Of a stretch of 31,073 bases of DNA, positions 1,006-24,459 are shown piece after piece. The notes beneath the pieces are model-generated. The model was not told the origin of the DNA and did not search any database. It saw only the letters and a program-made list of their open reading frames with translations. Position 1 is the stretch's first letter; every line of letters begins with the position of its first letter. A program made the position numbers and the translations under genes. The stretch lies in IMG/VR virus record IMGVR_UViG_2602041669_000008. One strand, written 5' to 3'. This DNA comes from a virus. Lineage: Duplodnaviria; Heunggongvirae; Uroviricota; Caudoviricetes.

Positions 1006-1196
1006 AGTCCCTCCTGAGCAGAAGCGTTAACAGGGAGGCACCAGTAACTGAGAGAATTGCGTGAATCAGTGGAAAAACGGGCAGAGAAAATGCAGGGAGC
1101 ATCCGGAAGCTGAGAGCGAGCCTCATCTTCTGTCGGTGCAATAACGAAGTGATAGTGACGTTTCTGGCAGGAGTAAAAGCGCCAGATAAATTCAGG
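1..1196. repeat. Direct repeat copy A (about 1.2 kb) matching 7588-8789; covers the icd-like ORF and the 5' two-thirds of ant; probably continues left of the window
   Basis: Positions 1-460 and 640-1196 align near-identically to 7588-8047 and 8230-8789; the track ORFs 29-235 and 7616-7822 are identical; a ~170-bp central patch is divergent. Confidence 0.85.
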
Positions 1197-1223
1197 GCGT
1201 GCGCAAGGATTGGCATTAACCAT
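1002..1223 (-). CDS. icd: Icd-like small protein (73 aa), translationally coupled to ant
   Basis: Track ORF; GAGG 9 nt upstream of ATG 1223; C-terminal 64 aa identical to the copy at 8595-8816, N-terminal 9 aa differ; size and position match P1 icd (from memory). Confidence 0.5.
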   Translation of the reverse strand: MVNANPCARPEFIWRFYSCQKRHYHFVIAPTEDEARSQLPDAPCIFSARFSTDSRNSLSYWCLPVNASAQEGL

Positions 1224-1382
1224 AGTTACGGCCTCATGTACAGGTTTAACAACCTGCTACCCGCTGCTAAACGGGTGGCAGGGCGTGACGGGGTTAGCAG
1301 ACTGGCGTACATGAAACCAGCAGGCCGAAGCCTCCCCATCACGCCCCACCATAATTTGGGCGTAACGCGGTTTTAGGGACAT

Positions 1383-1530
1383 AAAAATACCGCAATATCG
1401 GAAATCTGCGGTTGTCCGCATGTACATTCAGGCTGCTAAACCCGGTCGCAGAATTTGCTACGACGGCGGAACTATAAGCCTGAACGACAGGAAGATCAAT
1501 AGGGCAGTGTGCAATGGTAGTTTATTTTCC
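1383..1530 (-). ncRNA. Candidate c4-like structured leader/antisense RNA between a C1 operator and icd-like copy A
   Basis: Minus-strand hairpin ACCGCA/UGCGGU (1389-1412) followed by a U-run, about 145 nt downstream of the operator at 1541-1557; no ORF; sequence unrelated to the equivalent region of copy B. Confidence 0.3.
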
Positions 1531-1540
1531 TCAAAAAATC

Positions 1541-1557
1541 AAATCTATTAGAGCAAT
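1541..1557 (-). promoter_or_regulatory. C1 operator-like site (ATTGCTCTAATAGATTT, 16/17 to the consensus ATTGCTCTAATAAATTT as I recall it)
   Basis: Direct read of the minus strand; sits at the head of the icd-like/ant transcription unit. Confidence 0.6.
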
Positions 1558-1662
1558 AATGTTTGTGTGTTATTTTTGCACATGTTGAGCGTCATGGGGA
1601 ATTGAAATTTGTTTAAAACCTTGGCAACCTACTGTTTTTAATGCACTTAATAAGGTATGCAG

Positions 1663-14902: not shown

Positions 14903-15154
14903 TTATTTTTTTGGTGCATCCTCGTTCTGATACACCGGATCGCTCCCTTTTGGCAACTGGAGGCTTAACTGCCGATAGTGCCGTAACCGTTCCATGAAAT
15001 AGGTGCGCAGATTCTCTGGTTGCTCGCGGGCTACCTGTTCAGCTATGACAGGTATGTTCAATCGCTCTTTGTACGCCACACCGCTGGCAGCCAGATCAAC
15101 GTTAACCTTATCCCGTTCTTCCTGACTTTTAGCTGCAATATTCCAATCGTGCAT
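14903..15154 (-). CDS. hot: Hot, homolog of DNA polymerase III theta subunit (83 aa)
   Basis: [39 protein letters not shown] closely parallels HolE; internal ATG at 15152-15154 of track ORF 14903-15175. Confidence 0.85.
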
Positions 15155-15295
15155 ATCAAATCCCATCCAGAACAATTGCGTAACGACTATTATTTAACCA
15201 GCAAAGTAACTTTTAATTTTTTTTCTTTTCCCATTGATTTTTGTGCACAGCTTATCTGCCTTGCCGTGCGCAGAATCAACTTTTTTCTTCCTGAT

Positions 15296-15304
15296 TTATC
15301 CACA
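15296..15304. promoter_or_regulatory. DnaA-box 9-mer TTATCCACA in a coding-poor region
   Basis: Exact consensus 9-mer; single copy, so function is uncertain. Confidence 0.25.
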
Positions 15305-15603
15305 AAGTTATGCACTTGCAAGAGGGCCATTTTCTAAATATTGTGATGTTTCACAAATGAAATGAATTTTGATTAATGAAGATAAGGAGAAAATTTGAGA
15401 TGCAATCATGACGTTAATAGATAGGGTCTGCATTACAGACCCCATCCGCATCAAGGAATTAGCCGTTCCCTGATGTTGTTCCGAAAACATGTGCCGTAAG
15501 CTCACGTTAACGACTTTCTTTCACCGAATCCAACTATATAGGGGTTGGGTTTCTACGTCAACGTGAGCAAGTGCTCCTTTACATTTGACAAGGAACCACC
15601 TTA

Positions 15604-15741
15604 ATGACTGCTTTTTTTCAGTTCCTGAGTGCATTTTTAGATGCGCCTGTTATTAGCCAGATTCTGGCGATCATCCTCATCATCGTTTTGATTTTGCTTT
15701 TAAGGTCAGTAAAAAATGGAATTATGCACTGGCTTACTTAA
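15604..15741 (+). CDS. Candidate small hydrophobic peptide (45 aa, one predicted TM segment)
   Basis: ATG 15604 with AGGA about 10 nt upstream; MTAFFQFLSAFLDAPVISQILAIILIIVLILLLRSVKNGIMHWLT; below the track size threshold. Confidence 0.3.
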   Translation: MTAFFQFLSAFLDAPVISQILAIILIIVLILLLRSVKNGIMHWLT

Positions 15742-15815
15742 TGTTCAGTGAAACATTAAAATCTCCTTGATGTGGAAACAATCATTTTCTGTATGTGCTG
15801 GTGGGTACCTGTAGT

Positions 15816-16178
15816 TCAGCTTTCGTTGGCATTTAACTTCGTCTTTGCTTTCTCCACCAGCAACTTCCAGATGCCTATTTCATTAGCAGCCGCCTTGATG
15901 GCGGCATAAAAAGCATCTTGCTGATCGTAACGCTGAATCTGTTTTTTCAGTTTTGCCTCCACCAATTTAATTTCATTACGTGCTTTCTGAAGCCGCAGCG
16001 CCGCCCGGTTACGTCTGTTCTTGTATAGCGCGTTAATCTCTGATAATTGCTTTAATTTACCAGCCTGACTGCGGATTATCGCCTCTCTGACTTCTGCCGT
16101 GCGTCTCATCTGATCTCTTAAGAGTTCACCGTTTTCGATAATTCTTTCAAGGTGTTTGATGTGATCTGCAACTCTCAT
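15816..16178 (-). CDS. Hypothetical coiled-coil protein (120 aa)
   Basis: Track ORF; start overlaps the stop of the upstream 310-aa ORF. Confidence 0.6.
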   Translation of the reverse strand: MRVADHIKHLERIIENGELLRDQMRRTAEVREAIIRSQAGKLKQLSEINALYKNRRNRAALRLQKARNEIKLVEAKLKKQIQRYDQQDAFYAAIKAAANEIGIWKLLVEKAKTKLNANES

Positions 16179-17107
16179 ACTTCACCCTCGCTTGTATCGC
16201 CAGCATCCACCAGCGGCAATAAAGCCCTGGCCATCTTATGAACCAATAGTGCATCAATAATGCCAAGCGTATGCCCCGGCTTAATGTTTAATGCCGCCTC
16301 AAGGTGACACCTTTCCAGGCCACTTTTCTCGGCTTGTTTATGATGATCTGGTGTAATAACGTCGCCCAAAACACGGCTAATTCTTTCTCGTAATTGCTGG
16401 GTGCCAGCACACTTGATCGCTGTATCGTGGAGACGGTTAACCAGTTCGCGATAAACATGCGGCTTAATTCGGATACGTTCACCGGTGACGCCCTTTCCTG
16501 GTGCTGGCACCGAACTATCCGGAATATCCGGATAGTTGCCAGCCTCGTAAGCTACCCGCAGCCAGTGCATGAATGTTTCAGTGGACACACAACCACAGTC
16601 CACATCGATTTTCCCGCGTTGCTGTTCCAGCCATTGCCCAAAATCCAACCTGTAAGTCTTACTTTCAAGTTCATCACCATTGAACTCGACTTTCTGCGAC
16701 GCTATGAGAGCTGATTCGTATTGTTCGCGAGTGACAACTGACTGGTATTCATCGCTATCAAGGTCACCAATTGGAAGCTCAATCTCACAACAAAAATTGC
16801 GCCCAAAGAAAGTGTCTTTTTTGTGGTCTGAGCCAAAAGCAAAAGTCGCGCATGGTGCCATTAAATTGACACTGGGTAGGTAACAATAACTCATTCCATC
16901 AGGCCACCCGCCGCACTTAGGCAGTTCCTTCACTAACAAGTCGATAAACTTCATTTTTTTATCATCTTTGCAAGCCGCCAAAGCCATTTGGGCAAGTGCC
17001 AATACTTCATCTGCCGTATATCCAGCACCGTGACCATACATTTCGATACGGGAAATAATCTCTGATATACGCTCTTCAGTGATTCTGGTCATTTCTTTTT
17101 GCGCCAT
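16175..17107 (-). CDS. Hypothetical protein (310 aa), Cys-rich
   Basis: Track ORF; AAGGAA upstream of the ATG; no family recognised. Confidence 0.6.
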   Translation of the reverse strand: MAQKEMTRITEERISEIISRIEMYGHGAGYTADEVLALAQMALAACKDDKKMKFIDLLVKELPKCGGWPDGMSYCYLPSVNLMAPCATFAFGSDHKKDTFFGRNFCCEIELPIGDLDSDEYQSVVTREQYESALIASQKVEFNGDELESKTYRLDFGQWLEQQRGKIDVDCGCVSTETFMHWLRVAYEAGNYPDIPDSSVPAPGKGVTGERIRIKPHVYRELVNRLHDTAIKCAGTQQLRERISRVLGDVITPDHHKQAEKSGLERCHLEAALNIKPGHTLGIIDALLVHKMARALLPLVDAGDTSEGEV

Positions 17108-17463
17108 TTCTTTTCACATTCCTTAGTCCATTTTTCAATGTTCATTTTGGCAATATCAGTCATTCCATCACCTAAGAAATACTTTCTCCGGTACGTCTTG
17201 CACTTAAACCACACTACAACAGCCACCAGCCAGAAAATAAAAGGCCATACAGCAATACCAACTCCAGCCGCGATAAAGCCCAATAGCCATAAATGAAGCT
17301 CTCCAACTTCTGTTTGCGGCAATATTCTTAAAGAATTAAGCAGCAGACTGAAGGAATAGTCGTATGCATTGGCGGTATAAGACATGCAATCCATATAATT
17401 AAAGTCATAGCCTGCGGCTGCCGCCCATAATGGGCGGTCAAGAAAATGTTTTAGTGTCATCAT
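17089..17463 (-). CDS. Putative membrane protein (124 aa; two hydrophobic segments, basic C-terminus)
   Basis: Track ORF; low-GC gene. Confidence 0.5.
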   Translation of the reverse strand: MMTLKHFLDRPLWAAAAGYDFNYMDCMSYTANAYDYSFSLLLNSLRILPQTEVGELHLWLLGFIAAGVGIAVWPFIFWLVAVVVWFKCKTYRRKYFLGDGMTDIAKMNIEKWTKECEKKWRKKK

Positions 17464-17469
17464 ATAAAT

Positions 17470-17763
17470 TTAAGGTTCAGACCAGTTATCTTCAATAGCA
17501 ATGCTTAATCTTTGTAGCCATTCTGCTAATTTCAGCATTGCTTCTCTTTCGCTTAAACCACGAGGAAAATCATCAAGCGAAATTGTTGGCTTGAAGCTCC
17601 CGTAATTATCTATTTCAACAGTCAGATTTTGCTCCAGCACGGTATTCCTTACGCGGCTATTGTGCCGAAGCAAATATACTGAACGTGATTTATTGGTTTT
17701 ATGGTCAAACTGATATTCGGTAAGTATCATCTGGCTTTTGCCATGACTATTACCTCTCCACAT
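17470..17763 (-). CDS. Hypothetical protein (97 aa)
   Basis: ATG 17761-17763 with GAGG 5 nt upstream, in frame with track ORF 17470-17859; low-GC. Confidence 0.5.
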   Translation of the reverse strand: MWRGNSHGKSQMILTEYQFDHKTNKSRSVYLLRHNSRVRNTVLEQNLTVEIDNYGSFKPTISLDDFPRGLSEREAMLKLAEWLQRLSIAIEDNWSEP

Positions 17764-17770
17764 ACTTACC

Positions 17771-17893
17771 TCACTTAATAAAACAACTCCATGCGTAGTT
17801 GATGATTTTTTCCCACGTAATATAAATCTGCACTCCGGCAGTAAAACCAAAGCCAACAATTGCTGAAAAAATCAAAACATTTACTTTTGACAT
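17771..17893 (-). CDS. Candidate small hydrophobic peptide (40 aa)
   Basis: MSKVNVLIFSAIVGFGFTAGVQIYITWEKIINYAWSCFIK; its stop lies 8 nt before the next ATG; weak purine-rich RBS. Confidence 0.3.
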   Translation of the reverse strand: MSKVNVLIFSAIVGFGFTAGVQIYITWEKIINYAWSCFIK

Positions 17894-17941
17894 TATAAAT
17901 TTTCTCTCGGTGTCGTAGGTGATAGCACCATAATTGATAAT

Positions 17942-18175
17942 TTAGTGAGTTAGCAGTTCCATTTTTTGGATGATTTCCGCATGAGCATCATCGTTATCAA
18001 CACTTAACTCGTTTAATGCCTCTCGCACTACATCAACTTCTTCTGGTTGGAAGAAGTCATCTCGGTAGTCACCAAATAGAACCGAAACAAGCCTGCCACC
18101 AGCAACATCAAGATTGGCGCTAACAGGTGGCTCTTTGCCATCCTCAAATTCGACTACAAAAGTTATTTTTCCCAT
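17942..18175 (-). CDS. Hypothetical acidic protein (77 aa)
   Basis: ATG 18173-18175 with GGTGGT 5 nt upstream, in frame with track ORF 17942-18193. Confidence 0.5.
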   Translation of the reverse strand: MGKITFVVEFEDGKEPPVSANLDVAGGRLVSVLFGDYRDDFFQPEEVDVVREALNELSVDNDDAHAEIIQKMELLTH

Positions 18176-18177
18176 CG

Positions 18178-18261
18178 TTACCACCAGCGACAAATTGAAT
18201 ACAAACCCAGTGCTGCCGCCATCACAATTCCTACCGTGGTGAATGCTTCAGGCCAGCTCAT
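18178..18261 (-). CDS. Candidate tiny hydrophobic peptide (27 aa)
   Basis: MSWPEAFTTVGIVMAAALGLYSICRWW; ATG overlaps the stop of the upstream DUF551-like gene (ATGA); its own stop is 2 nt before the next ATG. Confidence 0.25.
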   Translation of the reverse strand: MSWPEAFTTVGIVMAAALGLYSICRWW

Positions 18262-18800
18262 TGATTCACCTCCTGCGGCGGTTCTGGTAGCGGCATCCAG
18301 AACAAGGCGTTCCCTAACCACGATAAAGTGCCGTCGCTCAACTCCACGTATTCCCCTTGCACCTGGCCTGCCATATACTCGCCGTGCTTTGAATAAATTA
18401 AAATCCAATCATCTTGAGCGGGCATTCGCTCACTACAGCTTATCCAACTATCCGGAGTTACCGGAGAGTTGCCATTTACATCGAAGTTTGGCTCTGCGTC
18501 CTGAACCAGGAGGATGTAACCATTCTTGGCAGTATCAAGTTCTAACGCCTCGGTGACGGTGCCGAAATAGCGATTACCTAAATCAGCATCACAAGTGCTT
18601 ACATCAATGGAAACTTCCATGCCTTCGATTAATTCTGGCAAGTTGTAAGTTTGGCTTACAGGCTCTGCTTCCAGCGATGCCAGTGCAATTCGTGCCAGTT
18701 CTTCCGCTTCTTCTGCTGGCAGTACAACGTTGCTACCAGGTCCGTATGTTTCGCGCCACTGCTTGATTGTCAGCAGTCGCTCTTTGGTAATAGTGATCAT
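18258..18800 (-). CDS. DUF551-like phage protein (180 aa)
   Basis: Track ORF; C-terminal W...CSERMP...W...WMPLPEPP signature. Confidence 0.65.
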   Translation of the reverse strand: MITITKERLLTIKQWRETYGPGSNVVLPAEEAEELARIALASLEAEPVSQTYNLPELIEGMEVSIDVSTCDADLGNRYFGTVTEALELDTAKNGYILLVQDAEPNFDVNGNSPVTPDSWISCSERMPAQDDWILIYSKHGEYMAGQVQGEYVELSDGTLSWLGNALFWMPLPEPPQEVNQ

Positions 18801-19006
18801 TTGTTAATCCTCAAAACTTTATGCCCGGGCGCAAAAGCACGCGTTTTGTCTTTGCTTATTCGCCAGCCATCCTTGCGCGCCTCTTTTGCACAGCCAGCCC
18901 ATGACGTACCTATATACTCACCGAAGTCTGGCACTGGATATACACCTTCCGTACACTGGCGGCAGTCACAATAGAGATGCATTGTGTAACTTGCGGCAAT
19001 AGCCAT
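18797..19006 (-). CDS. Small Cys-rich protein (69 aa)
   Basis: ATG 19004-19006 with AAAGGAG 7 nt upstream, in frame with track ORF 18797-19078. Confidence 0.5.
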   Translation of the reverse strand: MAIAASYTMHLYCDCRQCTEGVYPVPDFGEYIGTSWAGCAKEARKDGWRISKDKTRAFAPGHKVLRINK

Positions 19007-19007
19007 A

Positions 19008-19196
19008 TCACTCTCCTTTAGTGCGCAAGTGGTTTTTCCAGCGGTTTTGCGCCGCGCTGGGCTTTTTGCAAAAACCACAATCCATCATCCCGTAATATTT
19101 CATCAACCCCATCCGTCGGTTGCTGAGTCTCACCCACTGCCAGACGCCAGGAGCGTTTCTACGAACTAACAGAATCTTTGCCTTACGGTTTTTCAT
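19008..19196 (-). CDS. Small basic protein (62 aa)
   Basis: Track ORF; AGGAG 9 nt upstream of the ATG; stop abuts the next start. Confidence 0.45.
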   Translation of the reverse strand: MKNRKAKILLVRRNAPGVWQWVRLSNRRMGLMKYYGMMDCGFCKKPSAAQNRWKNHLRTKGE

Positions 19197-19368
19197 CGCT
19201 TTGCTCTCCTGCGTCTCTTTGCTGCTCGTCGTGCCGCTGCAATACCGGTATGGCGGCGCTTTGGTGCCGGGATGATGTTGTCAGCCATCAGGACATACGG
19301 CTTTGCAATTAGCGCAGAAGCCCAAAAACGAGTCGGGTACGGTAACAAGCCAATACATGCCACACGCA

Positions 19369-19857
19369 CTACTCACCTCCGTTGATGCGAATGCCTGTTG
19401 CAATGCTGTTTATGATGCTGTCAGTGCATGGGGTAGAAAGCTGGGCATCTCCAGCAATTTTCATGACATCAACATCTGCATATCGAATACCGAGGTGTAT
19501 CAGACCGGCTATACCTGACTTAAGCCGAGCATTTTCCATAAACAGATCCTTTGCCCGCTGTTTTTCTGCCTCAAGCTCAACGCGCAGCTTCCCTACCGTT
19601 AGCGCAATTTCCTCGTTCTCCTGGTCGCGGGATTTGATGTATTGCTGGTTCCTTTCCCGTTCATCCAGTAGTGCCAGCACGGTTTCTGGTCCGGCCAGAA
19701 ATTTGAAGGCGTTGAGCGCATCAATATCCACACCGTAATCTTTAAGTTCCTGTTCACTTAACAAATCATCATCAGCTGGCAACATTAACAGGCGTTCCAT
19801 TGCTGGAATTGCACGTTCCGCCGCCTCACGCAGTGCCTGGTAATTAATTTCGCTCAC
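19369..19857 (-). CDS. Ead/Ea22-like protein (162 aa)
   Basis: N-terminus MSEINYQALREAAERA typical of the lambdoid Ea22-like family; start overlaps the upstream stop. Confidence 0.65.
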   Translation of the reverse strand: MSEINYQALREAAERAIPAMERLLMLPADDDLLSEQELKDYGVDIDALNAFKFLAGPETVLALLDERERNQQYIKSRDQENEEIALTVGKLRVELEAEKQRAKDLFMENARLKSGIAGLIHLGIRYADVDVMKIAGDAQLSTPCTDSIINSIATGIRINGGE

Positions 19858-20630
19858 TGGTTGCCTCCTTTGCGAAGCTGGGCAGCAAAGTCAACTAACC
19901 ACTCAGTCATTTCAACCTTCCCTACCAGATCTGAACCAGGGTGCATACAGCAATCACTCTGCGCCGCTTTGAAATCCTTATACTCATATTCTTGGGCCAC
20001 CAGATTTTTTGCAGCTTCTATAGCAGCATCCAATCCCTGCGCCCGCACTTCAGCCAGGCATTTGCGAAACTCGGAAACGTACTGTTCGACGCTCATTCCC
20101 CAGCTAAGTGGACATTCATTGAATGTTTCGCCTTCGTGCTCTTCATCAGGTAGCTCTTTGGTAAAGAACTCACGCTCAATGGCGTGGAGTGTGTCAGCAA
20201 AACGACGTAAGTTACTCAAACCTACCGTAATGGAGAATTCAGGAGCATCACATCCGACGCCCATCTGCTGATAAACGGCGGTTTTGAAGGCCTTAAGCCC
20301 CGCATTCTCCGCCACCAGCGCCGCGAGATTAGTCTCAAGCTCTGCAATTCGACACATAGCATCAATATTTGTGTCCTCCAGGCACTTAATTTCACCAAGC
20401 AGCTCCAGTGCAACCTTTGGGTTGAACGCGGCAACATGACGAGCGTTGTTCTCTGCATTTTTCTGTCCATCAAAGCCGGTCCATTTGATAACGTCTTCAC
20501 ATCGTTCATCACCGGGCGTGTGCACCGCATAAGTACCAGTATCCGTCGAAATAAATGCGACCCATTCGTCTGGTGTTGCCTTTTCTGCCGCCTCACGCAG
20601 TACCTGATAGTTAATTGTCATTCTCGCCAT
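19854..20630 (-). CDS. Ead/Ea22-like protein paralog (258 aa)
   Basis: N-terminus MARMTINYQVLREAAEKA, same family signature. Confidence 0.65.
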   Translation of the reverse strand: MARMTINYQVLREAAEKATPDEWVAFISTDTGTYAVHTPGDERCEDVIKWTGFDGQKNAENNARHVAAFNPKVALELLGEIKCLEDTNIDAMCRIAELETNLAALVAENAGLKAFKTAVYQQMGVGCDAPEFSITVGLSNLRRFADTLHAIEREFFTKELPDEEHEGETFNECPLSWGMSVEQYVSEFRKCLAEVRAQGLDAAIEAAKNLVAQEYEYKDFKAAQSDCCMHPGSDLVGKVEMTEWLVDFAAQLRKGGNQ

Positions 20631-21262
20631 CCTTCACAGTTGTAATCACTACAGCCTTCAAAATCATATGGGCTGTACTGCCAGGTTATTTTTCCGCAAT
20701 GCGGACAATTCCAACGCACCTTCCCGCTTCGCGACTTCTTTCTTCTGTTCTGCTCTTCCAACCAGTCAGGCATGACCAAACCTGCGCCCTGAACCATTGT
20801 TCTGCGGTTAAAGTTATTGATATTGAACGTCCGACGCTTTGCTGCATCAGCAATGGAAAATGGCAACCAAACTATTCCTGGTTCGTTTTTGTTGGCGACG
20901 CTAAAGATGGTCGCTTTACTGAAGTCATCTGTTGGCAATCCACCGTGTTGAAGCCAGTAAACATCGTTGCCGTTCCAGCTACCTTTTTTGTAGGCCACAT
21001 ACGCAGTGCAATCTGACTCAATCAGGCTTTCTGTAGGGATGTACTGGCAATCAACGTGCCACACAGCCATTGCATCCACACTATCGGCACAAACAGGCTG
21101 ATCGATATCTCGCCCACAATTCCAGGCTTTTTGGGCTTCTTCCAGCGTGTAAACATGAGCGCGATCGATATCAGAACTGTAACCATTGCCGTTATGGCAA
21201 TGGAATGAGGCGTTATTACCCACAGTTTCACGCAAGCACATCATGTAAAAACGGTTACTCAC
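20618..21262 (-). CDS. Hypothetical Cys-rich protein (214 aa)
   Basis: Track ORF; GTG start with GGGAGG 6 nt upstream. Confidence 0.55.
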   Translation of the reverse strand: MSNRFYMMCLRETVGNNASFHCHNGNGYSSDIDRAHVYTLEEAQKAWNCGRDIDQPVCADSVDAMAVWHVDCQYIPTESLIESDCTAYVAYKKGSWNGNDVYWLQHGGLPTDDFSKATIFSVANKNEPGIVWLPFSIADAAKRRTFNINNFNRRTMVQGAGLVMPDWLEEQNRRKKSRSGKVRWNCPHCGKITWQYSPYDFEGCSDYNCEGWRE

Positions 21263-21470
21263 TGGATGCCTCCCAGCAAATTTGTCTTATATAAGAACTG
21301 TTAACGCGCTTTACTTTCCCGTCGAACTCCAGTTTCTTTAGACGACGCAAAACGTATGCCGTTTTGAGTGTGCGATATTTATCCCTAAGCCAGTTGGTCA
21401 CGACGTAAGTCATACAGCGCCCGTGTTCTTCCAACACCCGAACTATTTCTTCGTCGGTTGGCTTGCTCAT
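21255..21470 (-). CDS. Small basic protein (71 aa)
   Basis: Track ORF in a tightly packed operon. Confidence 0.5.
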   Translation of the reverse strand: MSKPTDEEIVRVLEEHGRCMTYVVTNWLRDKYRTLKTAYVLRRLKKLEFDGKVKRVNSSYIRQICWEASSE

Positions 21471-21688
21471 TTTGTCGCTCCTTCAGCTTTCTCTACTTTC
21501 GCTGCCATGATTTCCAGCTTTTGTGCTGCCGATGCCGCTAACCTGTGAAATTCTTCATCTGTTTCAACTGGAATTGGTACAAACCTGACACCAATTTGAG
21601 CAAGGCTATGCGCCATTTCGAGACTTGCTCTTAACTCTGCTGGGGATGCTTTATTCAGGCCGACTTCCTCACAAATAACTGATTGCAT
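21467..21688 (-). CDS. Small hypothetical protein (73 aa)
   Basis: Track ORF; start overlaps the upstream stop. Confidence 0.5.
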   Translation of the reverse strand: MQSVICEEVGLNKASPAELRASLEMAHSLAQIGVRFVPIPVETDEEFHRLAASAAQKLEIMAAKVEKAEGATK

Positions 21689-21697
21689 ACGCTCGCC

Positions 21698-22423
21698 CTA
21701 CTGAATACGCTCAAACTCGATTACCCAAACCCAGGGATTAGCACTCCAGCTTTCTTCGCCGTAGATGGATTCCCACAGGCGCTGGAACGCAACCTTGGCC
21801 ATTGCGAAATCCCCCTTGGGAGTAAGGAATGTTCCCGGGTGATCAGGAAGCAAACTTCCAGCAGGCGGAACGCCCTCATCCCTTGCATCGCATTCGCTGA
21901 TATCGTTCAACCGCTCAACGCGCACGTTGGTAATTTCCAACAGGATGCGTGATGCCCATCGCGGCATGTGAATTGATGGACGCCACCCACCATCAAACTT
22001 TTCATTCACAGTGTGAGGTTTCCAGTCGGCATCATCGGGTATCGACCATAAACCGTAATCACCAGGCTTTTGCTCACAACTGGCCCGATAAATCCTTGCT
22101 GCGTTCTTCTCATCGCCACGACAAAGGTTGTCGTTCCAGTCCACACTGCAACCATCTTCATTGCCTAATATCGCCCATGTTTCACGAACCCAAATTCGAT
22201 CGCCGACGATACCAAAGGGGCAATTGAAAACACTGCTTACACCATCAGCCCCGTACCACTGAAAACCTGCACCAATTTCCCTAACCATCACTGGTGCTTC
22301 TGGACCAACTTCCGCAGGCTGATTTTTCATTATCCGCCGCGCCTGCGTTTTCCTTCCTTCGAGGATGGCTCGGACCATCTCATCGTTGAAAATCATGCCG
22401 CGCTCTTTCACTTCGCCTTTCAT
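21698..22423 (-). CDS. ASCH/PUA-like domain protein (241 aa)
   Basis: N-terminal motif FNDEMVRAILEGRKTQARR resembles the ASCH signature; AGGGGGA upstream of the ATG. Confidence 0.55.
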   Translation of the reverse strand: MKGEVKERGMIFNDEMVRAILEGRKTQARRIMKNQPAEVGPEAPVMVREIGAGFQWYGADGVSSVFNCPFGIVGDRIWVRETWAILGNEDGCSVDWNDNLCRGDEKNAARIYRASCEQKPGDYGLWSIPDDADWKPHTVNEKFDGGWRPSIHMPRWASRILLEITNVRVERLNDISECDARDEGVPPAGSLLPDHPGTFLTPKGDFAMAKVAFQRLWESIYGEESWSANPWVWVIEFERIQ

Positions 22424-22432
22424 GCATCCCCC

Positions 22433-22519
22433 TTACCCATGCGCGACGATGCCGCCAAAAGTGATAGAGAACAGCCAGAAATAGATCGAGGCCATAATGA
22501 TTTTGAATGCCGTGTTCAT
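22433..22519 (-). CDS. Candidate 28-aa hydrophobic peptide (type I toxin-like)
   Basis: MNTAFKIIMASIYFWLFSITFGGIVAHG; AGGAG 8 nt upstream of the ATG, preceded by CCAATCAATCA; stop is 9 nt before the next ATG. Confidence 0.3.
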   Translation of the reverse strand: MNTAFKIIMASIYFWLFSITFGGIVAHG

Positions 22520-22528
22520 ATTTTCAGC

Positions 22529-22578
22529 TCCTGTGATTGATTGGATACATGCCGCGCCTTACGGCATGTTTTTATTTT
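22529..22578 (+). ncRNA. Candidate antisense small RNA overlapping the RBS of the 28-aa peptide gene
   Basis: CATATT -10-like hexamer at 22517-22522; motif TGATTGATTGG at 22534-22544; stem CATGCCG/CGGCATG (22548-22568) followed by TTTTTATTTT; no plus-strand ORF. Confidence 0.3.
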
Positions 22579-22601
22579 CACTTTCTCTGTTTTAAAAATC
22601 A

Positions 22602-22618
22602 AGATTTATTAGAGCAAT
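22602..22618 (-). promoter_or_regulatory. C1 operator-like site (ATTGCTCTAATAAATCT, 16/17)
   Basis: Direct read; overlaps the stop codon of the HAD-like gene. Confidence 0.6.
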
Positions 22619-23124
22619 TATTGTTGATGGAGAAGCGCGTTTTCATACTCCCTGACCATTAACGTAAGTACGCCGTGACTCCTGAAAACACGCGCCACTT
22701 CAATCTTATCTTCCAGCGCGAACGCAATTTTACTTAGACCAATTTTCTTCAGGAGATCAATCTTTGCTGGACCGTCATTTCTGTCATCGGTGGCAGGACG
22801 CATAGATAGCAAAGGCTCCGCCCCATTTGTTACGTGCTTACGCAACCAGGCTCGTGTTTTATCCCTGGCTATCTCACAGCGCCCGGTTACAAACCAGAGG
22901 GTGTAAATGCCGGACAACTGGCGCACCATATCAATAACTGGAGTGATGGGAGCATCAGTGTCACAGGCAAGGTTAAACTCGTTCCAGTGCTCTGTTAATG
23001 CACCTTTGCCAGGTGGTGGAAGTAAATGCAGCCTGTCTTCCGTTGCCTCTGATATCGTCCCATCAATATCTACTATGACGATGTACGGACGTTCCTGGTG
23101 TGCGTGTTTATTGAAAATACTCAA
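22618..23124 (-). CDS. HAD-superfamily phosphatase-like protein (168 aa)
   Basis: Motif IVIVDIDGT (DxDGT); TTG start with GAGGAGG 4 nt upstream. Confidence 0.65.
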   Translation of the reverse strand: MSIFNKHAHQERPYIVIVDIDGTISEATEDRLHLLPPPGKGALTEHWNEFNLACDTDAPITPVIDMVRQLSGIYTLWFVTGRCEIARDKTRAWLRKHVTNGAEPLLSMRPATDDRNDGPAKIDLLKKIGLSKIAFALEDKIEVARVFRSHGVLTLMVREYENALLHQQ

Positions 23125-23143
23125 ATGCCCTCCTCATTGGACG

Positions 23144-23176
23144 AAAAAAATGCTGGTGGGAGCACTCCACCAGCAT
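23144..23176 (-). terminator. Intrinsic terminator on the minus strand between the 420-aa gene and the HAD-like gene
   Basis: 10-bp perfect stem ATGCTGGTGG/CCACCAGCAT followed by U7 on the minus strand, ending just before the HAD RBS. Confidence 0.55.
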
Positions 23177-23196
23177 TAAAAGTGACACTGTAACTA

Positions 23197-24459
23197 TCAG
23201 CGAACGTAAATAGTGCCGCCGTTCTCTTTTTCCCATGCATCGCTACGTGCATAGCAAACATCGAGAAGTCTTCTTGCCGCAGTTTCCTCTAAACCCAATT
23301 CGACAACCAACTGCTCATGACGGCGGGTAACCACATCAAACAGGGTATGCAGCCCTTTAGTTGCCAGATCATCAATGAATTCCGGTTCGAACGGCAGCTC
23401 TGCATCTGCCAACATAACCTCTTGCGCCCACTCAACTCGACGGACCAATTCCGGGCGACGGCTTTCCATCTCTTTACAGATCAATTCATGGAAGAACTCT
23501 ACCCAACCTTCCGGCTGGAACTCGCGGAAAATTGCCAACGGCTGGAAGTTTGGCATCAACCATTCGTTGATTCGGATATCAATGGCATAGCCCATGTCGC
23601 AGCAGAACTGATAAGCAAAGTCCAGCTTAGAAACGATATAAGGACGCTCGTTATTGAACTCTTTAGGCGATGAGATCCCATAAGCCAGGAGGCGCGGGAA
23701 GAAGGAGATTTGCCCTAACGTCGGATGAAGTTTGCTTGCAGGGAAACGGCGCTCAGTAATGCCATACATTTCCTTCTTGAGCGTCGCAAATTTGGCATTC
23801 TCATTAACCAGCGCGGTAACCTCTGCTTTTTTATTAGCAAATGCCACGCGCGCCTCGCTTGCATCTTTAATAGTTTTTTTGAGCTGTTGGTTAAGGTCGG
23901 CGACCTGCTTACGCAGTTCCTGTCGCTCGCTTTTAGCTTTGTTATAGCGTTTCTCAAGGTTAAAAGGATCAAGTTTCATGATCTCTTTATATTGAGATTT
24001 TAGCGTTGAAATCTGTGAGTTCCGCAGTTCAACCATCGCGGTCATTTCATTGAGTTTTGTTTCCAGCTCAATGCTTATACGTTCGGCATTATCAGCACGC
24101 TGGTTGGCGTCATGCGTCGCATCGTCGATCGCGTCCTGTTGCTGGCGTTTCAAATGTTCAATTTCCAGCTGAAGCTCTTCAATTTCTTTACCCTTCAGAC
24201 CGAGATCCAACTGCATATTTTCAGCTGCATCTACCAGGGAGTTATGGCTATCAGCTTCTGCGTTATAAACATCAATAAGCTGTGCGTGAAGCATCTCCGC
24301 TGACTGAACCGCATTATCAAAAAAACGTGCTGTGAGGTCATCACAACTAACGCGGCGTTGCGCGGCCCGGATGTTCTGGATAATGGCCGGGATACCGGCA
24401 TTCAGGACATCAGGGATACATACATTTTCGATTGATTGGTTTTGTGCTGAAGTGCTCAT
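23197..24459 (-). CDS. Hypothetical protein (420 aa; coiled-coil N-terminal half)
   Basis: Track ORF; CCAATCAATC lies within the first 10 codons. Confidence 0.65.
   Translation of the reverse strand: MSTSAQNQSIENVCIPDVLNAGIPAIIQNIRAAQRRVSCDDLTARFFDNAVQSAEMLHAQLIDVYNAEADSHNSLVDAAENMQLDLGLKGKEIEELQLEIEHLKRQQQDAIDDATHDANQRADNAERISIELETKLNEMTAMVELRNSQISTLKSQYKEIMKLDPFNLEKRYNKAKSERQELRKQVADLNQQLKKTIKDASEARVAFANKKAEVTALVNENAKFATLKKEMYGITERRFPASKLHPTLGQISFFPRLLAYGISSPKEFNNERPYIVSKLDFAYQFCCDMGYAIDIRINEWLMPNFQPLAIFREFQPEGWVEFFHELICKEMESRRPELVRRVEWAQEVMLADAELPFEPEFIDDLATKGLHTLFDVVTRRHEQLVVELGLEETAARRLLDVCYARSDAWEKENGGTIYVR

Follow-up and report, generated by a model that had tools for sequence, protein, structure and literature searches.

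A 27-codon gene missed by annotation pipelines probably encodes a single-pass inner-membrane microprotein of a widespread family in phage accessory operons

A 27-codon open reading frame (ORF) on the minus strand of a P1-like phage-plasmid, at 18261..18178(-) of the window (the whole stretch of 31,073 nucleotides of IMG/VR record IMGVR_UViG_2602041669_000008 that was analysed), is very probably a genuine gene for a bitopic inner-membrane microprotein of 27 residues, belonging to a widespread family that has no name. The first-pass annotation of this DNA had proposed a real, tiny, single-transmembrane ORF, coupled to its neighbours and missed by annotation, and this proposal was supported by conservation of the reading frame, Shine-Dalgarno sequence and stop codon, by purifying selection and by absence of the ORF from RefSeq. 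The family is new, and of an already known general kind, that of very small membrane proteins with a single pass, encoded in the accessory regions of phages.

The ORF (18178..18261, minus strand, 27 codons plus TAA) runs from an ATG at 18261-18259 to a TAA at 18180-18178, and its exact translation is the 27-residue peptide MSWPEAFTTVGIVMAAALGLYSICRWW, a predicted single-pass membrane microprotein of what we call the 'MxWPEAFxxVG' family. Its Shine-Dalgarno sequence, AGGAGGT (18268..18274, minus strand), lies 6 nt 5' of the ATG and falls within the final codons of the upstream gene, which encodes a DUF551-domain protein of 180 aa (18258..18800, minus strand; PF04448, E=3e-10; phrog_60). The TGA of this gene (18260-18258) shares bases with the ATG of the small ORF in the sequence ATGA, and judged by this overlap the 27-codon ORF is translationally coupled to the DUF551 gene. 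Downstream, only 2 nt (CG) separate the TAA from the ATG (at 18175) of a 77-aa gene (17942..18175, minus strand; phrog_3876), for which the final sense codons of the small ORF, TGGTGG (18186..18181), contain a GGTGG Shine-Dalgarno-like site. The first-pass annotation had placed the start on the stop codon of a DUF551-like gene, as borne out by the coordinates and by the PF04448 match, and the end 2 nt ahead of the next ATG, which also proved correct; the strand, which it left unstated, is the minus strand. The peptide ends in RWW here and mostly in RWG or RWR in variants that precede other sequences, and the ribosome-binding site of the neighbour may therefore have a part in determining the C-terminal residue. 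Residue 2 was nearly always T, S or N (A-initial codons) where the start is an ATGA over a TGA stop.

The window was found to be 100% identical to part of plasmid pRM10386-1 of E. coli O26 RM10386 (NZ_CP028125, 18371-49443), a P1-like phage-plasmid with c1, icd/ant, a pacAB-type terminase, phd/doc, humD and a theta-subunit gene. Several genes of this stretch are annotated by PGAP as frameshifted pseudogenes (a phage tail protein, a VRR-NUC protein, a Tn3-family transposase and two hypothetical proteins), and the phage-plasmid may therefore be partly defective. The 27-codon ORF sits within a long, tightly packed minus-strand operon (roughly 22423 to 15816) whose accessory genes are of the lambdoid 'ea' type (among them Ea22-like, DUF551 and DUF1382 genes); each of these accessory genes matches a PHROG family to which no function is assigned. 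At the 27-codon ORF, nothing is annotated in the RefSeq/PGAP record of the identical plasmid, and the ORF is likewise unannotated in the phage records 813R1, 933W, Min27, ArgO145 and Av-05.

Three companion ORFs, of 40, 28 and 45 aa, had been grouped with the 27-codon ORF in the first-pass annotation as a set of four tiny ORFs of a class usually missed. All three exist and each has a hydrophobic stretch. The 40-aa hydrophobic ORF (17771..17893, minus strand) lies in the same operon, 350 nt downstream of the 27-codon ORF, and matches phrog_5525 (E=1e-24); it is annotated in phage 813R1 and missing from the RefSeq record. Both ORFs are thus tiny, hydrophobic, part of one accessory operon and absent from the RefSeq record, whereas their sequences are unrelated and the 27-aa family, unlike that of the 40-aa ORF, is present in no library that was searched. 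The 28-aa hydrophobic ORF, MNTAFKIIMASIYFWLFSITFGGIVAHG (22433..22519, minus strand), has its own Shine-Dalgarno sequence and follows a terminator-like hairpin. It is P1-backbone sequence, present in P1, P7, SJ46 and their relatives only at 93% identity or above, too close for its coding status to be judged from divergence; the SJ46 record labels it 'membrane protein', and neither the P1 reference nor the RefSeq entry of the plasmid annotates it. The 45-aa ORF (15604..15741, plus strand) is annotated by PGAP as WP_000123562.1. The claim that such ORFs escape annotation was therefore correct for three of the four in this record, and did not extend to the 45-aa ORF, which PGAP annotates, nor fully to the 40-aa ORF, which has a PHROG family.

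The 27-codon ORF (below also the tiny ORF) could be placed on the gene maps of other phages. The gene order of phage BP-4795 is N ... cIII-kil-gam-bet-exo ... ORF5-[tiny ORF]-ORF4-ORF3-xis-int, with the tiny ORF in the pL operon between the exo-distal genes and xis-int; it is similarly placed ahead of xis-int in WGPS2, phi467 and L079, and in 933W-type phages it lies beyond attP, adjoining hok/sok. From these positions, the tiny ORF belongs to the exo-xis/'ea' accessory region. This region is expressed early in lytic development and has a reported influence on lysogenisation and induction (PMC8614690, PMC3824215); neither of these two papers mentions the tiny ORF. From position, we infer that the gene would be expressed in early or accessory phage operons.

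A tblastn search with the 27 residues hit 92 phage records, with identities of 54-100%; Stx phages, other lambdoid phages and P1-like phages made up most of these, and some were large phages such as Av-05. By blastn, 1632 of the 5426 complete E. coli genomes searched (~30%) had matches, at up to seven places per genome. A DNA motif scan in which the first 11 codons were fixed (M-x-W-P-E-A-F-x-x-V-G) and the remainder left free recovered 123 enteric-type copies, 120 of which had exactly 27 codons; the exceptions were two stop-loss extensions and one frameshift. The 'invariance' of the first 11 codons is partly by construction, since the search pattern imposed them, and the BLAST matches, which are independent of this pattern, also keep W-P-[ED]-A-F. 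In almost every copy, the start codon shares bases with, or directly adjoins, the stop codon of the gene before it (ATGA or TGATG/TAATG). The copy in Av-05 (Vequintavirinae; 1201-1284 of the examined stretch) carries many synonymous differences, and the large phage records 18-1-2, 19-1-2 and TH18 have the tiny ORF too. As these records, including Av-05, are of 77-134 kb, the module is not restricted to lambdoid or P1-like temperate phages. The phage-plasmid setting in which the first-pass annotation had framed the ORF was thus accurate as to its presence in P1-like plasmids, and too narrow, the ORF also being found in lambdoid and Stx phages and in much more distant ones.

A few copies in the searched records were decayed or out of place. 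The copy in the Stx phage 75/02 of Shigella sonnei has TAG at W3 followed by a frameshift (~1530-1612 of the examined stretch), and this pseudogene is a natural knockout that can be compared with intact relatives; one truncated copy elsewhere in the scan set appears, on our reading of the sequence, to be broken by an insertion-sequence-like end. Enteric-type copies were also found on a 431-nt Xanthomonas pisi contig and a 369-nt Acinetobacter idrijaensis contig, both of ~50% GC and one of them encoding the same peptide as the window; these probably represent contamination of the assemblies by E. coli or phage DNA.

The sequences flanking the enteric-type copies differed to a degree that the ORF itself did not. 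Among 110 copies there were ~9 upstream classes (including DUF551 ends, Ea22-like coiled-coil ends and an HNH-adjacent gene) and ~20 downstream classes, in 31 combinations. The largest single downstream class was the hokW/sokW locus (32 copies), a gene starting MFALIQRGQIYT followed in 21 and the 77-aa gene of the window in 15, and in roughly a third, by our own reading, the ORF was followed by one of several different intrinsic-terminator-like hairpins; the tiny ORF is often the last gene ahead of an intrinsic terminator. Over 73 unique contexts, mean pairwise identity was 0.74-1.0 across the ORF (nt 0-84) and 0.79 over the Shine-Dalgarno sequence (-12..-7), the only conserved block outside the ORF, and it was 0.30-0.47 in the flanks, at most 0.52 just 5' of the Shine-Dalgarno sequence and ~0.35 right after the stop. 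The ATG, an AGGAGG-type Shine-Dalgarno sequence and the stop were retained across the 31 flank combinations, and no fixed partner gene and no promoter co-travelled with the ORF; the idea of such a partner gene was rejected on these grounds. The ORF and its Shine-Dalgarno sequence are an autonomous mosaic module, and the coincidence of the mosaic boundaries with the start and stop codons points to a selected gene. Frame, length, start, Shine-Dalgarno sequence and stop were kept across dozens of unrelated contexts, the opposite of the loss of frame in homologues that the first-pass annotation had named as evidence against a gene.

The tiny ORF is independent of DUF551, since in the pL operon of 933W the DUF551 copy is followed by a GTG-initiated ASCH-like gene, without the tiny ORF (933W stretch 1150-1560, minus strand). 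For the same reason, and because the upstream genes are unrelated between contexts, a frameshift fusion adding a membrane anchor to DUF551 was rejected. The 3' end of the DUF551 gene (...LPEPPQEVNQ*, with GGAGGT) is itself a conserved junction, a ribosome-binding site for whatever gene comes next. In 933W-type Stx phages, the tiny ORF is immediately 5' of the hokW/sokW type I toxin-antitoxin locus (933W stretch 1201-1650), and in one database protein labelled as a Hok-family toxin (P0137) the first 15 residues of the tiny ORF are joined to another tail with a Hok Pfam domain, a fusion that apparently arose by a deletion.

Selection was analysed on 48 unique 27-codon nucleotide versions. Entropy was highest at third codon positions (0.55, versus 0.26 at first and 0.21 at second positions), and pooled pS was 0.286 and pN 0.089, a pN/pS of 0.31 and a dN/dS of ~0.27, with a dN/dS of 0.32 for the 16 codons outside the search pattern. 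Shifted frames gave ratios of 1 or more (1.1-2.0) and always contained stops. The Ka/Ks analysis that had been proposed as a check on the ORF thus gave purifying selection, with a dN/dS of ~0.27-0.32. Substitutions remain hydrophobic; natural variants include E5D (WPDAF) and F7L, and some have in-frame insertions of 2-8 residues inside the helix. These helix expansions (for example ...GIAMAMAMAMAMAVAL..., in a 35-aa variant and in proteins P0071, P0098 and P0110) are suggestive of slippage at a GCGATG-like repeat of 6 nt, which would lengthen the transmembrane segment by whole residues.

A scan from which the E. coli type was excluded, by limiting the proline codon to CCA/CCC/CCG, revealed a divergent family beyond enteric phages. 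In IMG/VR phage contigs of 40-71% GC, its members were hydrophobic peptides of 21-30 aa; in metagenome contigs, 34 of 38 complete unique matches were of at most 35 aa (21-31 aa) with a hydrophobic segment at 12-23, most of the matches had a basic terminal residue and only two looked like chance. The metagenome contigs carrying the motif matches listed ranged from 0.33 to 0.68 GC. Matches in genomes included Izhakiella and a Sphingobium prophage, in which the copy lies just 5' of YqaJ-like and RecT-like genes, and divergent members adjoin recombination or replication genes (YqaJ/RecT-like, exonuclease-like and helicase-like ORFs), in each case by our own reading of the translations. Motif matches in Streptomyces and Micromonospora were rejected as chance, being of 65 aa or more and not hydrophobic. 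The family motif is M-x-W-P-E/D-A-F/L-x-x-V-G followed by ~12-18 hydrophobic residues and usually a basic C-terminus. A further set of proteins, of 45-65 aa, start with MxWPEAFxxVG and a hydrophobic helix and continue into a polar C-terminal tail, and may be extended relatives of the 27-aa family; a copy in a Pseudobdellovibrionaceae metagenome-assembled genome (346-543, minus strand) is found in prophage-like surroundings, together with what by our own reading are an integrase and an ASCH-like gene.

The family was found to be all but invisible in reference resources. A profile search of 5.8 billion protein clusters, with an alignment led by a 50-aa family member, gave 140 clusters named only 'hypothetical protein', 'bacteriophage protein', 'prophage protein' or 'DUF551 partial', none of them with a Pfam domain on the MxWPEAFxxVG part. 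The label 'DUF551 partial' is a carry-over from the neighbouring gene, as the 27-aa peptide has no PF04448 match and the upstream gene does. Pfam DUF7512 was discarded (16.4 bits against a gathering threshold of 27 bits, in one of 25 members only), as was phrog_4612, a sub-threshold match that was not common to the family; the best PHROG match was at E=0.019, for one variant only. There was no match to the 27-aa peptide in NCBIfam or PADLOC, none in a PDB profile search at E up to 10, and none in Rfam within 15000-23500 at E up to 1. GenBank holds the peptide only sporadically, as a "hypothetical" or "bacteriophage" protein, and RefSeq omits it; a gene of 27 residues is so short that annotation pipelines skip it. 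Neither the peptide nor its DNA was present in the small-gene catalogue, with supplements, of a Ribo-seq study of EHEC Sakai in which prophages were uninduced. A full-text literature search for 'WPEAF' returned unrelated matches only, a review of small membrane proteins and a paper modelling exo-xis proteins do not mention the ORF, and our literature searches found nothing on the MxWPEAFxxVG family.

The 27-aa peptide has a single hydrophobic stretch (roughly residues 7-24), with a Kyte-Doolittle value of 2.13 for the best 15-residue window (residues 10-24). The sole charge at the N-terminal end is E5, giving an N-tail of net -1, and the C-terminal end is net +1 (R25), an asymmetry that is consistent in most of the family, in which the C-terminal end usually carries Arg or Lys. 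The peptide is predicted to form one transmembrane helix, and by the positive-inside rule this acidic N-tail and basic C-terminal end predict an N-out/C-in orientation. AlphaFold2, given a natural 32-aa read-through variant and 33 homologues, returned a single helix over residues 3-31 with a pLDDT of 92. The whole peptide would be a single helix, bounded at either membrane interface by a belt of aromatic residues (W3/F7 and Y21/W26/W27). In 44 representatives (<75% identity), position 11 was Gly in 100%, positions 13, 15 and 17 were small (G/A/S) in 75, 90 and 68%, and positions 12, 14 and 16 were bulky and hydrophobic in 88, 86 and 88%, so that the pattern G11-x-A13-x-A15-x-A17 would place G11/A15 and A13/A17 on two helix faces. 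Small residues on helix faces are the usual signature of close helix-helix packing. The same charge layout (E5, helix, R25) is seen in the coat protein of phage Pf3, with its short acidic N-tail, single hydrophobic helix and basic C-terminal end; this protein of 44 aa is a model substrate for YidC- and pmf-driven insertion and needs no signal peptide to reach an N-out/C-in orientation. Its role is in the virion structure of a filamentous phage, whereas the 27-aa peptide is shorter, is encoded among the early genes in tailed phages and has no homology to it.

On this picture, the peptide would insert N-out/C-in and would work in the inner membrane by packing its helix tightly against another, that of a conserved host protein of this membrane or of a further copy of the peptide. 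Either of these is more likely as the partner than a co-encoded phage protein, since the module recombines freely with its neighbours and its hosts are of very different GC. Provided that the ORF is a real membrane-microprotein gene, modulation of a host membrane protein has, in our estimate, close to an even chance of being its role, or slightly less. Small bitopic regulators include Caulobacter SidA (29 aa), MgtS (31 aa), PmrR (29 aa), KdpF (29 aa) and AcrZ (49 aa) (in part PMC12648545). These have one transmembrane helix of similar length and make helix-helix contact with a larger membrane protein, the mode of action that we consider most likely for the 27-aa peptide in view of its conserved small-residue faces. 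They differ from it in being chromosomal and individually regulated, the 27-aa ORF being a phage mosaic module with no sequence relationship to them.

A more specific form of the host-protein reading, which we regard as speculative and rather doubtful, is that the family comprises pan-proteobacterial (possibly broader) phage 'takeover' microproteins that dock on a single, universally conserved machine of the inner membrane and modulate it at an early stage of infection or induction. Docking would be via the WPEAF cap and the G-x-A-x-A-x-A faces, on targets such as the divisome, FtsH, YidC/Sec or the lipid II pathway. If true, this would make the family a new class of phage-host interaction factor, hidden in a substantial fraction of E. 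coli genomes, those with Stx phages among them.

A different mechanism, which leaves the coding status of the ORF untouched, would be that of a type I-toxin-like or holin-like peptide that self-assembles via its two small-residue faces and dissipates the membrane potential, in a host-shutoff, abortive or addiction role. Size and composition do resemble those of membrane toxins of 19-50 aa such as DinQ (27 aa), TisB (29 aa), ShoB (26 aa) and Hok (50 aa), which are also tiny, with a single hydrophobic helix, an expected inner-membrane location and an aromatic or basic helix end, and which are often skipped by annotation. Small residues on two opposite helix faces would fit higher-order oligomers, and hokW/sokW, the neighbour of the 27-aa ORF in many Stx phages, lies directly 3' of it in the largest downstream class. 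Unlike these toxins, however, the 27-aa ORF has no antisense RNA, promoter of its own or structured leader; only the ORF and its Shine-Dalgarno sequence are conserved, with no conserved antitoxin RNA or dedicated promoter and a blank Rfam search, and expression would be via coupling to ordinary upstream genes within long operons. The peptide has an N-terminal WPEAF motif, no sequence similarity to the toxins was found, and it is carried at up to seven places per genome, by prophages and plasmids that are stable, in which its expression may however be repressed. We therefore consider a toxin-like or holin-like action unlikely.

It is much less probable still that translation of the ORF, and not its product, is what matters, with the tiny ORF serving as a relay or leader that passes ribosomes downstream or holds them near a terminator to tune read-through. 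Such a role would accord with the overlapped upstream stop, the 2 nt to the next ATG and the TGGTGG that doubles as a Shine-Dalgarno-like site in the window, and with the many other contexts in which a terminator hairpin starts roughly 9-16 nt past the stop of the tiny ORF. It would not explain why amino-acid sequence and hydrophobicity are kept across 33-71% GC, with a dN/dS of ~0.3, and no single relay function is conserved, since the downstream partner varies in ~20 ways and is often absent.

The position of the 84-nt block exactly at mosaic boundaries, with unrelated sequences on both sides, and the existence of conserved boundary sequences in lambdoid phages could also suggest a non-coding junction, such as a recombination linker or another cis element, in which the ORF is incidental; with variation concentrated at third codon positions, with ATG, Shine-Dalgarno sequence and stop kept and the length fixed at 27 codons in nearly every copy, and with distant members that share the peptide pattern and not the nucleotide sequence (and no Rfam match), this is highly improbable. 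The dN/dS signal alone cannot assign the strand, since antisense frame -1 shares its wobble positions with the sense frame and is mostly open (in 47 of 48 enteric and 15 of 19 divergent copies); assignment to the sense strand is made on the conserved start, Shine-Dalgarno sequence and stop and on the hydrophobic character. A functional antisense ORF or RNA on the plus strand across 18178-18261, where plus-strand ORFs 18114..18242 and 18236..18556 are present, is scarcely credible, as the antisense frame lacks conserved start and stop codons inside the conserved box and continues into non-homologous flanks, has stops in 4 of 19 divergent members, encodes polar, pattern-less peptides, has no co-travelling promoter and is expected to be open opposite NTN-rich hydrophobic codons.

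A gene for a small inner-membrane peptide is the reading that we retain, and with its short, nearly invariant motif and clear structural prediction the family lends itself readily to experiments on small membrane proteins and on the poorly understood exo-xis/'ea' regions. MxWPEAFxxVG is also a concrete motif by which the gene could be added to annotation pipelines. The family illustrates that a strongly conserved phage gene family can stay outside Pfam, NCBIfam, PHROGs and RefSeq by falling below the length limits of gene callers, and it does so in carriers that include Shiga-toxin phages and P1-like phage-plasmids, the latter often with resistance genes, with relatives in environmental phages of very different GC.
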